DNA of 64,000 bases from a plasmid: assembly GCF_056746865.1 (NCBI RefSeq), contig NZ_JBWKMP010000002.1. One strand, 5' to 3'. Below, piece by piece: positions 27,001-33,000 of this stretch. Position 1 is the stretch's first letter; each line of letters begins with the position of its first letter. The position numbers are program-made.

Positions 27001-30000
27001 TTGTCGTCAGTCCAGTCTAAAGATATGAGGTGTCATTTTCTTTGAGTAGGCCCACTACGAATTATGGGAGCAAAGTTAGCGACCTAGCCCAGAACTGAAA
27101 CCCAACTTCAGGAGGCAACCCCAGTGTGGCGATTGGAGTTAATCTGCCAGCGGCTGACAGTGTCCTGGCTCCTTTCTCCGTGGCCCACCACGCCCTGATT
27201 AAAATCCCCTGCCCGGTATTGTATGGAGCGAAAAAAGCCCGTGCATTTGTGTCGGCAGACCGGCATGAAGGAATATGACGTTAATCTGTATCAGCAGGCA
27301 CTTTTCGCATGATGGGAGCAAGTGATAGCAACCCCGCCCAGAACGGAAGGCCAGCATCAGGACAAAACCCAAGTTTGGCGATTAAGGGGGTTAAATTTGC
27401 AAGCGGATGACAGTGCCCCAGCTGCTGCTCAGTCACACCACGCCCTGAGTAAATCTCTCGCCAGGTCTTGTTATGACCGAAAATAGCCCAAGCACTGGTG
27501 TCGGCAGACCGGCATACAGGAATATGACGTTAATCTGTATCAGCAGATACATTTCGCATTATGGGAGCAAGAGATAGCAACCCAGCCCAGAACTGAAGGC
27601 CAGCATGAGGACAGAACACCAGTTTGGCGATTAAGGGAGTTAAATATGCAAGCTGCTGATAGTGCCCCAGCTCCTGCTCAGTAACACCACGCCCTGATAA
27701 AATCTCCTGCCCGGTAATGTAATGACCGAAAAAAGGCCGTGCACTGGTGTCGGCAGACCGGCACGCAGGAAAATGACGTTAATCTGTATTAACAGACACA
27801 TTTCGCATTAGGGGAGCAAGTGATAGCCACCCAGCCCAGAACTGAAGGCCAGCATCAGGACAGTACCCCAGTTTGGCGATTAAGGGGGTTAAATCCGCCA
27901 GTGGCTGTAAGTGCCCGAGCGGTGTATAAGAAATATTTCCCGAAGGACAATCTTTCGCTCGTACGATGAATAAAGTGTTCAACCCGGGAGCGGGGATCAC
28001 TTACCTGCTTAGCCTAAATCTTACGTCATTCTTAAACGGAGTTTAAGCTTAATGGTCCTTAGAAAGTTAAAAGGACTACCCATAATGACGTCTTGAGATG
28101 GCGAATAAAGGGTTTTAATCTGCCAGCGGCTCAACAGTGCCCCAGCTTCTGCTCAGTCACACCACGCCTGATTAAATCTCCCGCCAGGTCTTATTATGAC
28201 CGAAAATAGTCCCCGTGCACTAGAGTCGTAAGACCGGCATACAGGAATGAAGCTTAAATCTTTATCAGGTTGCAAGGTTCGCATCATGGGAGCAAGGGCC
28301 TTGAACTGTAGGTTAACATCAGAAAATCCCAGATTGGCGATTAAGGGGGTTAAATCTGACAGCGACTGAAAGTGCCTTCAGATGCTGCTCAGGTATATTA
28401 CAACCTGAAAAAATCAAGCGTCTGTTCATGCGAATATCGAAAAAAGCTATGCACCAGTTTCGGCAGACCGGCATGGAGTAATGAGACGTTAATCTGTATC
28501 AGCTGGCGCATTTCGTATCATGGGAGCAAGTGTTAGCAACCCTGCCCAGGACGGAAGGACACTATCAGGACTGATCCCAGTTTGGAGATTAAGGGGGTTA
28601 AATCTGCCAGTGGCTGACAGAGCCTTCTGAGTCAGACATACTATGAACGATAAAATCACCCGTCCGTCCTTGTGATTATCGGAAAAAGCCATGCCCAGTC
28701 GGCAGATCGGTATGCAGTAATGTGACTTTAATCTGTATCAGCAGGCGCAATGGGAGCAAGTGTTAGCAACCGAGCCCAGGACGGAAGGACACTATCAGGA
28801 CTGAACCCCAGTGTGGCGATTAAGGGGGTTAAATCTGCAAGCGGATAACAGTGCCCCAGCTGCTGCTCAGTCACACCACGCCCTGATTAAATCTCTCGCC
28901 AGGTCTTGTTAGGACCGAAAATAGCCCGAGCACTGGTGTCGGCAGACCGGCATACAGGAATACGACGTTAATTTGTATCAGCAGGTACATTTCGCATTAT
29001 GGGAGCAAGTGATAGCAACCCAGCTCAGAACTGAAGGCCTGCATGAGGACAGAACACCAGTTTGGCGATTAAGGGGGTTAAATCTGACAGCGGCTGACAG
29101 TGCCTTCAGATGCTGCTCAGGCATACTACTCTCCCTGATATAATCTCCCATATGTTCTTGAGATTCGCCCATGCACCGGTGTCGGCAGACCGGTATGCAG
29201 TAATGTGATTTTAATCTGTATCAGCAGGCACATTTCGTATCATGGGAGTAAGTGTTAGCAAACCGAACCCCGCCCAGCACGGAAGGTCAATATCAGACCA
29301 GAATCCCAGTTTGGCGATTAAGGGGGTTAAATCTGCAAGCTGCTGACAGTGCCCCAGCTTCTGCTCAGTCACACCACGCCCTGATAAAATCTCCTGCCCG
29401 GTAATGTGATGACCGAAAAAAGCCCGTGCACTGGTGTTGGCAGACCGGCACGCAGGAATATGACGTTAATCTGTATCAGCAGTTACATTTCGCATTATGG
29501 GAGGAAGTGATAGCCACCCAGCCCAGAACTGAAGGCCAGCATCAGGACAGTACCCCAGTTTGGCGATTAAGGGGGTTAAATCCGGCAGCGGCAGTAAGTG
29601 CCCGTGCTGTGTTAAAGGAATATTTCCCTAAGGACAATCTTCCGATCGGCCTTTTGTATAAAGTGGTCACCCCGGGAGCGGGGATCACTTTACCTGCTTA
29701 GCCTAAATCTTACGTCAATCACTATCCGGAATTTTAGCTTAATGGTCCTGAGCAAGTTAAAAGGGGTACCCCTAATGACGTCCCCAGATGGCGATAAAGG
29801 AGTTAATTCCGCCTTCGGCTTACAGTGCCGCAGCTGCTGCTAAGGAACACCACGCCCTGATTAAATCTCCCGCCTGGCCTTGTGATGACCAAAAATTGTC
29901 CGTGCACTGGCGTCGTAAGACCGGCATACAGGAATGAGGCGTTAATCTTTATTAGGTGGAAGGATTCGCATCATGGGAGCAAGGGCCCTAGAACTGTAGG

Positions 30001-33000
30001 CTAACATTAGAAAATCACAGATTGGCGATAAAGGGGGTTAAATAAGTTAAAAGTCTTCGGTGAGCAAATTGGATAAATTTTCATAAACCAAAGCGTTAAT
30101 ATTAAACTTTTAGAAGAATGATTAAAGGATATTAAGTTTTGTATGCAATATGACACCAGTGATCTGTTTTCACTAATAATGCCGCGCTCCTTTGATTACC
30201 TTTGGTAAACAAAAATGTAATTTACGTGAATTTCATCTTATAAAGTCAGTATTGATGTTATAAATTTTGTTTACTTAATGCGTACACAACCTAAATGCGA
30301 TTTGTAATTATGTCACTGTTTTTAAGCCATATTAATTATAAAACCAAAATTTGCAGCACAGTGATGAACTCATTAAGTCATAACCTCATTTGTTTACTTA
30401 AGGCATACAATAAAAAACCAGATTCTTATGAGACATCTGGTTTAATTGTTTTTGCTTGAAGATATTTACTCTACGCGGCCAAACCCGCTGCTACTTCTTG
30501 AGCATAGAGAATTTCTATTGCCTCGCCATAGCTACAATTCTCGCGGCTTTGAATTTCCCATAATTTACTCCTGTCAGCACTATCCGTAGTAAAACAAAGC
30601 TCCATTTTCCGGTCTACGTATAACCGACAGATCTCGTAAGTTTCGAACCTGACTAACATCTCTGAAAACACCTTTTTGACTGTACGAATATTTTTCATTC
30701 GTTCATATTCTGCATCTGAAGTAGAAAAATATTTATTAGCCTTCATTGCTTCAATGCTTTCTTTTTCTTGTTTCATGATTATCTTCCAAGGCGAGTTAGC
30801 AGTCAGGGCCCGGCCAACAGAAGAAGTAAAATAATCTTCAAACGACTGTGTGATACAGATGCCAGCGCAGTTTGTTTTCCTGAACCTACGCCATGCCGCT
30901 TCGAGGAAGGAAGAGAAGAATTGGTTTGATTGATTTCCGGCACCTGATGAATTATCAGGACGAATGTACTCCCAAGCTTCATCTAGGATGAACAAGCGAC
31001 GACGCCCATCTTTTTTGATGAACATTGCATGCTGAGCAGCCTGAATGATAGACATTAAAACAACTGTCTGAAGGTGGGGGGTGCCTTTTAGCTCCTCCAG
31101 TTCCAAAACAATAAATCTGCTGTCTATTGGAGGCAACGTATCGGTAAACCGGTGCCCATAAATTCCACCTTCGCACCATGCTCCGAGTTGCTCCCCAATA
31201 TCCTTTATACGTTTGTCTTCATGCTTCTTGCAACGCAGAGCAAAGCCGGTTATTGAACCGGTCCGACCTGATTTTCTGGATTCCTGGTACTCTTCTGCAA
31301 TAAGCTGAAGCATCACTGATTGTTGATAATCATCGATAAGGCCTTTCTCTGAAGCCATAATTTTTAGCTGATTCAGAACCATTATGGTCTGAGCAACTTT
31401 GTCTTTTTCTGCATCGTTTGAAGTTGATTCACCGGTAAATTCAGGTGCTTCGTTAAATACATCGTCGTTAACAGTGATGTCAGTTAGGAAGGCAAAGGGA
31501 TTTAGGGTGAAGTCAGGGGTTTTACCGAAATCAATAAATTGACTGTTTGTATATTGTTCCGCAATCCCCTGGTAAGAACGCCCCACGTCCACTACAAAAA
31601 CTTGAGCACCATCAGGATCATCATCTGGGTATTCGTTTTCTAAAAAATGCTTAAATGTTGAGCGATAATGAACGAGGTTATTAGATCGCGGTCCAGCTCC
31701 AAGATAGTTATTGATTAGATATGCTGTCCAGAATGACTTGCCTGCACCTGACGTTGCACCAATAACCATGTTATAGCTTGCAGAAGTCTTGAAAATATCA
31801 AGTCCCATGAGTTGACCTTCACGAGAAACTAAACTCAGTACTGGTCTATCTGTATTACCTTTCCAGGGCCCAAAGATCGGCGTCATATGAGCCGCTCCGG
31901 TGTTGCTCACTACTTCGGATCGGTCAAGGTCGAAAATTGTCTTTGGGTCATTGCACATTGGCAGACATGACATAAATGACGGGAAAACGATAAAGGAATC
32001 ATCTGCTACTTTGACCCGGCTTTCGAGGTAAAAGGATTTGAGATCGTTAGCTGCTGTCTGCACAGAATTGGCATTACTACCCATAACAGTGAAAGTAAGA
32101 TACCCTCTTAAAAGCTTTGCGCCATCCTCAAGCTCGCGAGTTACGGCCATGTAGTCATTATCCATATCCCGCAGGCGAGGGCAGAATGTGACAACTGAAG
32201 GTATACTTGCCTGTTTATTAGTGATTGCTTTGTAGCGGACGTTTTCTTTTGACAACTTGAGCGGATCGGCAAACTGAACAGTCTGAGTGATCATAAATGG
32301 GCTGAAAATTGTCTTACGTCCATGCATCCAGTTAACTACTAACTCATACATACAACCGAAATTGACGTATTCAGGAAACTTTACAACGGAAAGTTGTTTG
32401 AAGTAACGATGCTCAGATTCGTCGTCACTTTGTGTGACTGATGAGAAATGATTTTCTGTGACTGTATACTTACGGCCGGGAACGTTAACTTGTTCATTAA
32501 GCCTTTTCATAGTGTTAACGTCTATAAAACCTTCAGCCCACCGAGAGTTCTTTCCGGGGTTTACGACCTTATCTATACAATAGAGCCAGTTTTCTGCATC
32601 GACCTTAAACGGATGCAGTCCAATCGTAATTAACTTACTTACAAGTTCAGAGTAAAGTGAATCGATACGCGAATGTTCCAGCTCGGTAGGAAGGGCAGAC
32701 TGTAAAGGAATCGATAGCGAGATCCATACCTGAAAATCCCTCAACATAAGGTTATCATGATCAGGTTTTAAAGGCTTATGCATACTTCTGTCGTAGTAGT
32801 CCAACTGATAACCATTAAGCAGATCTGCTTTAAGCTTATCGTTCCCAGTCATACGCCCACCTCGCACAGCTGACCAAGCACTAAGCTGTAAAGTCAAGTC
32901 TGGCAATGCAGTCAGAGATATTTGACAGACAGTATCTGTAGGAAAATCCATTTTGAACATTTCAGCAAGAACATCTTGCTGATTATCAAAAACTCCAGGT

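Follow-up and report, generated by a model that had tools for sequence, protein, structure and literature searches.

Comparative sequence analysis points to a 3-kb array of 249-bp repeats as the probable parS centromere of the Par1 partition system of IncHI2 plasmids

Introduction

In phage P1, the centromere parS is a single site of ~80 bp that lies downstream of parB and contains a second arm as well as an IHF site. Schumacher and Funnell reportedly found in 2005 that P1 ParB reads the A-boxes of this site with its helix-turn-helix (HTH) domain and the B-boxes with its dimer domain. For the IncHI1 plasmid R27, Lawley and Taylor are said to have placed the centromere, in 2003, only to the Par1 module, by means of incompatibility tests. 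The type I partition system of R27 is the major stability determinant of that plasmid (PMC4489591; PMC13245405, both citing Lawley and Taylor 2003). In plasmid F, sopC comprises 12 direct repeats of 43 bp, and SopB binds a 16-bp inverted repeat in each of them (PMC3177203). Here, we analyzed a 64,000-nucleotide stretch of an IncHI2 plasmid (contig NZ_JBWKMP010000002.1 of NCBI RefSeq assembly GCF_056746865.1; hereafter the window), in which a 3-kb array of tandem repeats lies between the parAB genes and trhC. Comparison with other plasmids indicates that this array is probably the cis-acting multi-site centromere (parS array) of the Par1 type Ia ParA/ParB system of IncHI2 plasmids.

The array had been noticed before by inspection of the sequence alone, without database searches (the sequence-only reading). 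Four explanations were listed there and none was chosen: an unusually large centromere or partition-incompatibility locus, a replication-control (handcuffing) locus, a sink for a DNA-binding protein, and a family of small RNAs. The first of these is strongly supported by the plasmid comparison reported below.

Results

Structure of the repeat array

The putative parS array of Par1 ParAB spans positions 27064-30045 on the plus strand of the window, as delimited by its repeat period, by the alignment of its units and by a core motif confined to this span. Tandem Repeats Finder detected a single array at 27061-29603 with a period of 249, 10.4 copies and 68% matches. The anchor sequence ATGGGAGCAAG, which has 11 matches from 27064 to 29973, extends the array to 30045 when combined with the repeat families. 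The unit alignment resolved the array into nine units of 230-255 bp, two 476-bp units and a terminal stub of 73 bp; in total, the array comprises 13 head-to-tail units of ~249 bp each, counted as ten of 230-255 bp, two decayed units and the partial terminal unit. Stop codons number 43-65 in each of the six reading frames, and the array is therefore non-coding. It starts 408 bp from the parA start codon and ends 425 bp from the 3' end of trhC, a TraC-family gene on the minus strand (30471-33143) in the Tra2 backbone of the plasmid. These results agree with the sequence-only reading in most respects: it had described a 3-kb array of ~250-bp repeats between parAB and trhC, starting ~400 bp upstream of a type Ia parA and lacking a consistent open reading frame, and the three short motifs that it quoted each recur once per unit.

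A higher-order duplication of 1689 bp was also evident from the repeat families, with roughly 27560-28355 copied at 29250-30045. The same reading had inferred this growth from a ~110-bp insert present twice, 1.69 kb apart. The duplication stands, but the extra DNA is ~225 bp long (476- against 249-bp units) and represents a decayed unit. Both long units follow the normal unit for ~35 bp after the core, then diverge, and then reach a degenerate core. The two decayed copies, at 27905-28098 and 29592-29788 on the plus strand, share 85% identity over their unique parts (27930-28090 and 29617-29780). Copy 2 is colinear with consensus positions 68-198, with a score of 34 (shuffles: mean 19.2, sd 3.2, 0/200 as high). 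Because of this colinear alignment and the degenerate core at the end, the extra DNA of the 476-bp units is assigned to a decayed unit and not to foreign sequence. We also considered whether the 249-bp unit itself consists of four to five decayed 50-bp units. This was rejected, since the best self-alignment within the unit scored 17, not significant against a null of 15.6 ± 2.2.

A 21-bp core in every unit

The most conserved part of the unit is a 21-bp core, TGGCGATTAAGGGGGTTAAAT, which reads ATTTAACCCCCTTAATCGCCA on the parA coding strand. It is built of an inverted repeat with 5-bp arms (TTTAA/TTAAT) around a C5 spacer, running into the hexamer TCGCCA. Ten copies with ≤3 mismatches occur in the window, all on the plus strand and all within 27376-30043, compared with 0 in 100 shuffles of the window. 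Exact copies are located at 27376-27396, 27874-27894, 28335-28355, 28814-28834, 29063-29083, 29312-29332 and 29561-29581, and copies with one mismatch at 27625-27645, 28583-28603 and, as the terminal core at the end of the array, 30023-30043. Three further degenerate cores on the same strand complete the set, so that every unit has one: TGGCGATTGGAGTTAAT at 27127-27143, in the unit nearest parA, with a 4-nt deletion (the core is intact there in a sister plasmid, L001); TGGCGAATAAAGGGTTTTAAT with four mismatches at 28099-28119, following the first decayed copy; and TGGCGATAAAGGAGTTAATT at 29789-29808, which ends the second. The orientation of the core relative to parA is constant across units. 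Elsewhere in the window, a search at ≤6 mismatches returned only an isolated match at 46122, with none downstream of parB and none near either rep gene. Per-column information is highest in the core, at 1.8-1.9 bits against 1.1-1.6 in the remainder of the unit, although the anchoring of the units on the core biases this profile. The core sequences were not found in any paper of the accessible literature. Additional A-box-like boxes (GATTAA/TTAATC) are enriched in the array as well; they were dropped as evidence, such enrichment being circular for a repeat.

The edge of the array near parA (26921-27228), including the first degenerate core, is ~10% diverged from an otherwise near-identical sister plasmid. 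Identity over 26700-27300 is below 95% in all but one of 1128 PLSDB plasmids, the best among the matches listed being 93.8%. The divergence forms a local patch.

The adjacent parAB genes

The gene nearest to the array, parA (25403-26656, minus strand), encodes a protein of 417 aa, a long type Ia length. Matches to Walker-ATPase models, including the ParA/RepA/SopA model, begin near residue 110, leaving an N-terminal extension of ~110 residues. It is adjoined by parB (24402-25406, minus strand), whose product is of the P1 ParB type and belongs to the ParB/Srx family, an arrangement expected of type Ia ParABS. ParB residues 150-330 align with the P1 ParB(142-333)-DNA crystal chains 1ZX4 and 2NTZ (E = 4e-16), which covers both the HTH and the C-terminal dimer domain. 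The protein also matches Pfam PF08775, TIGR00180 and the P1-type ParB model PRK13698 of NCBIfam, with the PRK13698 match and its companion match both below the curated cut-offs, and no SopB model appears among the ParB matches. A GSRRR arginine patch in the N-terminal domain is invariant among the ParBs compared.

In this record, two single-base indels near 25019 and 24646 disrupt parB when it is compared with its intact counterpart in an IncHI2 plasmid of 99.6% identity; one of them is a -1 and the other a +1 change. The sequence-only reading had noted that parB looks inactivated; the two indels are there, but they are specific to this record, and parB is annotated as intact in most other IncHI2 plasmids listed (two rows give only 'ParB N-terminal domain-containing protein'). 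Against the same 99.6%-identical plasmid, the 16 kb flanking the array contain at least six single-base indels (at 19114, 23115, 24215, 24646, 25019 and 37785), and trhC has two small deletions (30635-30640 and 31124-31125). The parB frameshifts and the other backbone indels may be sequence errors or record-specific decay.

Between parA and the array, a 20-bp direct repeat and palindrome (TTTACGCATA ... ACGCATAATGCGT) is located at 26686-26722 on the minus strand, 30-66 bp upstream of the parA start codon. It is conserved in R27 (L006 25381-25426), within the sole non-core stretch common to both intergenic regions, and is likely, as judged from sequence, to be the ParA operator and parA promoter region. 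The plasmid has a second partition system, ParM/ParR. The array was rejected as a candidate centromere for that system: the region upstream of parM (21294-21657) has its own short repeats and palindromes, and the core motif is absent from it.

Co-variation of the core with ParB in related plasmids

R27 carries the closest described relative of the system, with ParA 89% and ParB 71% identical to those of IncHI2. Its gene order is the same (trhC, repeats, parA, parB), and the non-coding gap between parA and trhC measures 3.1 kb, against ~3 kb in IncHI2. The repeats in this gap of R27 are 52-54 bp long (21.6 + 5.6 tandem copies). They contain 23-24 copies of the identical 21-mer core, which faces parA in the same direction as in IncHI2. 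The two arrays differ in everything else: a 52-54-bp unit with ~24 cores in R27, a 249-bp unit with ~12 cores in IncHI2, and unrelated non-core sequence. When the two intergenic regions were compared by blastn, only short core matches and 110 bp at the parA promoter were recovered. Between IncHI1 and IncHI2, the core is thus 100% identical and ParB 71% identical, and everything around the core has been replaced.

Other relatives extend the pattern. In a Citrobacter plasmid (L011; ParB 71%), six repeats of 56 bp lie directly upstream of parA among non-transfer neighbours, with the core ACTTAACCCCCTTAATCGCCA, in which one arm base is changed relative to IncHI2. More distant ParAB relatives have a co-varied core of the form AACAACCCCCTTGTTCGCAG or one with a GCCA ending. 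Two megaplasmids of IncHI3/IncHI5-like type (ParB 47% in both) resemble IncHI2 in having kilobase-scale arrays of a homologous, co-varied core beside homologous parAB. One, from Klebsiella (L003), has 34 repeats of 67 bp upstream of parA and 11 downstream of parB with the core AACAACCCCCTTGTTCGCAG; the other, from Citrobacter youngae (L012), has ~26 repeats of 66 bp upstream and ~2 downstream, with a core of the AACAACCCCCTTGTTCGCAG type. They differ from IncHI2 in their shorter units, in having arrays on both sides of the operon, in the arms AACAA/TTGTT and in TCGCAG at the B-box position. In Providencia rettgeri pP50213-1 (L004; ParB 53%), there is no array; instead, the operon is flanked by single sites of the AACAACCCCCTTGTTCGCCA type, at distances of 135 bp upstream of parA and 174 bp downstream of parB (at 6866 and 9444 of L004). 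This two-site layout may be the ancestral single-site state of the centromere family.

Across these lineages, the arms change jointly and dyad symmetry is kept (TTTAA/TTAAT or AACAA/TTGTT), while the C-run of the C5 spacer and TCGC remain fixed. The sites accompany parAB, and not the transfer genes, whatever the neighbouring genes are, also where Tra2 genes are absent. Co-variation of the arms together with tracking of parAB is the signature expected of a binding site for the adjacent dimeric DNA-binding protein. Repeated dyad-symmetric sites beside parAB that co-vary with ParB across relatives are also what characterizes a type Ia system. We infer that the array is most probably the parS array of Par1 ParAB, in which ParB is predicted to bind the core. 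The remark in the sequence-only reading that classic centromeres are far shorter overlooks the sister IncHI plasmids, whose arrays, built from shorter units, measure 1.1-2.7 kb.

Base composition and the possibility of another binding protein

The array has a G+C content of 49.6%, compared with 36% and 29% in its flanks and 42% in the whole window. The arrays of R27 and the Klebsiella megaplasmid reach 56-59%, and all three arrays examined are G+C-richer than their surroundings. This bears on the suggestion that the array is a sink or platform for a DNA-binding protein other than Par1 ParB, such as H-NS, Sfh, a ParB-like nuclease-domain protein or a transfer regulator. Such a role would have the merit of addressing the conserved non-core blocks of the unit, which are otherwise unexplained, and the IncHI1 and IncHI2 arrays do lie inside the Tra2 transfer region. 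However, H-NS prefers A+T-rich DNA, and the array is the most G+C-rich stretch of its region; arrays also track parAB where Tra2 genes are absent, and the architecture of the core matches what a P1-type ParB reads. We therefore consider a sink for another protein very unlikely.

Transcription and RNA structure

The periodicity of the array, and a conserved short block, GTCGGCAGACCGGC, that is capable of forming a hairpin, would fit a small-RNA family or some other repeat transcribed once per unit. However, the sole Rfam match at E ≤1 (E = 0.67, a Dictyostelium RNA) falls within parA and not in the array. Four promoter-like sites (7.0 ± 2.5 expected) and four terminator-like sites (4.2 expected) were counted, none of which recurs per unit. 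The units fold less well than their shuffles (z-scores of +1.42 and +0.64), the covariation term of alifold is unfavourable (+1.71), and the sole part conserved across IncHI subgroups is the 21-bp near-palindrome, which is typical of a protein-binding site. Taken together, these data make a small-RNA family extremely improbable.

Replication control

Large direct-repeat arrays near replicons control replication in F (incC) and P1 (incA). By analogy with these precedents, the array could bind a Rep initiator and limit copy number via titration or handcuffing, and repHI2A is located ~11 kb from it. Nevertheless, the iterons of the window flank its second rep gene (54553-57609) and are built on an unrelated, TCACTACCGTTGTCA-type motif, whereas the core is absent near both rep genes, its only other match in the window being the isolated one given above. 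The arrays also follow parAB into contexts with no annotated rep gene in the 13-15 kb examined. A role as replication-control iterons is thus highly improbable. The publication on R27 incC concerns the RepFIA iterons and not the array.

The second repeat system of the window consists of 21-bp repeats upstream of rep (54553-55054) and a 9-copy tandem array of 81-bp units downstream (56869-57609), with the TCACTACCGTTGTCA-type motif throughout. These are probably the iterons and the copy-control array of the second IncHI2 replicon. Between them, rep is split into two open reading frames in this record (55294-55866 and 55907-56380).

Distribution among IncHI2 plasmids

In PLSDB, every one of the 1128 IncHI2 plasmids matches the array, and for 1098 the match covers at least 80% of it. 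All of these plasmids come from Enterobacterales and almost all from Enterobacteriaceae. Among complete RefSeq E. coli genomes, 275 match the array (230 with at least 80% of it). Its presence in all these records shows that the array is not an assembly artefact, the outcome that the sequence-only reading had named as refuting it. IncHI2 plasmids typically have 9-13 units, as judged from ~1100 records. Apart from occasional hypothetical-protein calls and insertion sequence (IS) insertions, no annotation covers the array in the matching records.

An IS3-family element is inserted in or beside the repeat region of one IncHI2 plasmid (NZ_OU015329.1 13124-17659), and in pHCM1 (L002) IS421 and IS1 are found in or beside the repeats upstream of parA (2596-3293 and 5437-6549). 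The arrays therefore tolerate interruption. Such tolerance, together with the ubiquity of the array in IncHI2, fits redundant non-coding sites.

The non-core part of the unit

The ~228-bp non-core sequence is restricted to IncHI2: a distant blastn search returned exactly the 1128 IncHI2 records and nothing else. Compared with the units of R27 and of the Citrobacter (L011) and Klebsiella plasmids, it has no similarity above shuffles. A unit block, TTTCGCATTATG, resembles the parA-operator half-site TTACGCATAATG (at 26708) in five units (27303, 27552, 27801, 28990 and 29488), which carry TTTCGCAT(T/G)A(T/G)G. This pattern, defined post hoc, does not occur in the R27 array and is kept as a lead only, not as evidence.

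Discussion

A model of the IncHI2 centromere

On the interpretation favoured here, each ~249-bp unit would present one 21-bp predicted ParB site. By analogy with P1, the inverted arms would serve as A-boxes for the HTH domains of a ParB dimer, and TCGCCA as a B-box for its C-terminal dimer domain. About a dozen sites of one orientation over 3 kb would then nucleate a large ParB assembly, the partition complex, which the type Ia ParA would move and position on the nucleoid, resulting in stable inheritance of a low-copy plasmid of >200 kb. In P1, parS reinforces autorepression of the par operon; in a similar way, repression of parAB may be aided by ParB bound to the array, which starts ~330 bp from the parA operator. 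As a multi-copy sink for ParB, the array would in addition be expected to exert partition incompatibility. Because the cores of IncHI1 and IncHI2 are identical, this incompatibility is predicted to act between the two subgroups and could cross them.

Observations that weigh against the centromere assignment

Several observations do not sit easily with a centromere of this kind. Both P1 parS and F sopC lie downstream of the B gene, but the array is found on the other side, upstream of parA. P1 parS has an IHF site, whereas the IHF consensus WATCAANNNNTTR is absent from 27050-30045, its nine matches in the window all lying elsewhere. Only ~21 of every 249 bp are accounted for by the core, and the blocks GTCGGCAGACCGGCA, GACGTTAATCTGTATCAGC and TTCGCATTATGGGAGCAAG are nearly as conserved among units as the core is. 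If the parB indels are real, the array may be inert in this record. No binding, stability or incompatibility experiment on the array was found in the accessible literature, which does not include the original R27 and R478 papers.

Two further observations also speak for a rival explanation, in which one or a few ParB sites perform partition and the 3-kb array is a mostly neutral satellite, an unselected by-product of unequal recombination whose unit has no function beyond the core. In pSH111_227 (L010 2754-4136), no more than 1.38 kb separate parA from trhC, with just two cores at ≤4 mismatches, whereas other IncHI2 plasmids have 11-14; the full array would be dispensable, provided that this assembly is correct. 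Substitutions within IncHI2, counted over six reciprocal-best unit pairs of two lineages, amount to 3/126 in the core and 79/1359 in the rest, a lower rate in the core, as a constrained site would have, but with counts that are too few for significance. A neutral satellite would also be in keeping with the just two single sites of the Providencia relative, the gain and loss of units between lineages, the visible 1.69-kb higher-order duplication and the tolerance of IS insertions. On the other hand, many copies (6 to 45) are retained independently in each of the IncHI lineages examined, although their unit lengths differ, and ~1100 IncHI2 plasmids keep 9-13 units although direct repeats are prone to deletion. 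The short gap of pSH111_227 is either a real contraction or an assembly collapse. On balance, we regard a mostly neutral origin of the array as unlikely, and the multi-site centromere as the probable function.

A more speculative extension concerns the rest of the unit. The 249-bp unit might be a composite module whose non-core blocks bind a second factor, either ParA itself, as the operator-like block of five units would suggest, or a host protein; separately, the identical IncHI1 and IncHI2 cores might constitute a so far unrecognised incompatibility determinant between IncHI subgroups. We consider this proposal rather doubtful. If the unit were such a module, ParB and its partner would be loaded next to each other on the IncHI2 centromere, in a fixed 249-bp phase.

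Relevance for IncHI2 plasmids

Among the plasmids of Salmonella, E. coli and Enterobacter, those of IncHI2 are major carriers of mcr-1, mcr-9, carbapenemase and heavy-metal resistance genes. The array is unannotated in more than 1100 sequenced plasmids, and the 21-bp core can be used as a marker for its annotation. As a likely ParB site, the core also offers a concrete target for plasmid curing or incompatibility-based displacement. Moreover, the relatives compared here form a natural series within one ParB family, from single sites to arrays with units of 52, 56, 67 and 249 bp, which is suited to studying the influence of site number and site spacing on ParB loading and on the size of the partition complex.

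Comparison with P1 parS and F sopC

The nearest likeness to the core is found in P1. In the P1 record K02380, ATTTCAA and GTGAAAT are annotated as A-boxes bound by ParB; on the par coding strand, they form an inverted pair that runs into TCGCCA. The IncHI core has its elements in like order and orientation (ATTTAAC-CCCC-TTAAT/CGCCA, against ATTTCAA-G-GTGAAAT/CGCCA in P1), a likeness of sequence only; in our hand alignment with the P1 right arm, 13 of the 21 positions are identical, including the whole B-box. The spacer between the arms differs (AGG in P1, C5 in IncHI), and the distance from arm to B-box is 1 bp longer in IncHI. At the protein level, P1 and IncHI2 ParB are only 28-29% identical; they are homologous over the HTH and C-terminal dimer domains, and both systems have a long ParA of type Ia whose gene is preceded by an operator-like palindrome. 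The IncHI2 system shares with P1 the two DNA-reading modules of ParB and inverted A-box-like arms abutting TCGCCA. It departs from P1 in its layout: ~12 sites over 3 kb upstream of parA take the place of the single ~80-bp site downstream of parB with an IHF site between its arms.

In layout, the array resembles F sopC, since both are type Ia centromeres (by assignment in the case of IncHI2) made of tandem direct repeats, head to tail, with one dyad-symmetric site per unit and all units pointing one way. The differences lie in size, position and protein. sopC is 0.5 kb long, lies downstream of sopB and has a 43-bp unit; the IncHI2 unit is six times longer and consists of ~90% non-site sequence. 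SopB represents a different ParB lineage, whereas IncHI ParB matches the P1-type model instead. Because it has neither the IHF site and single downstream location of P1 parS nor a SopB-lineage protein, we classify the array as a variant rather than as a member of the P1 parS or F sopC family. Compared with these known systems, it is an unusually large but otherwise ordinary element and no new kind of system, notable for its 249-bp unit and its 3-kb size.

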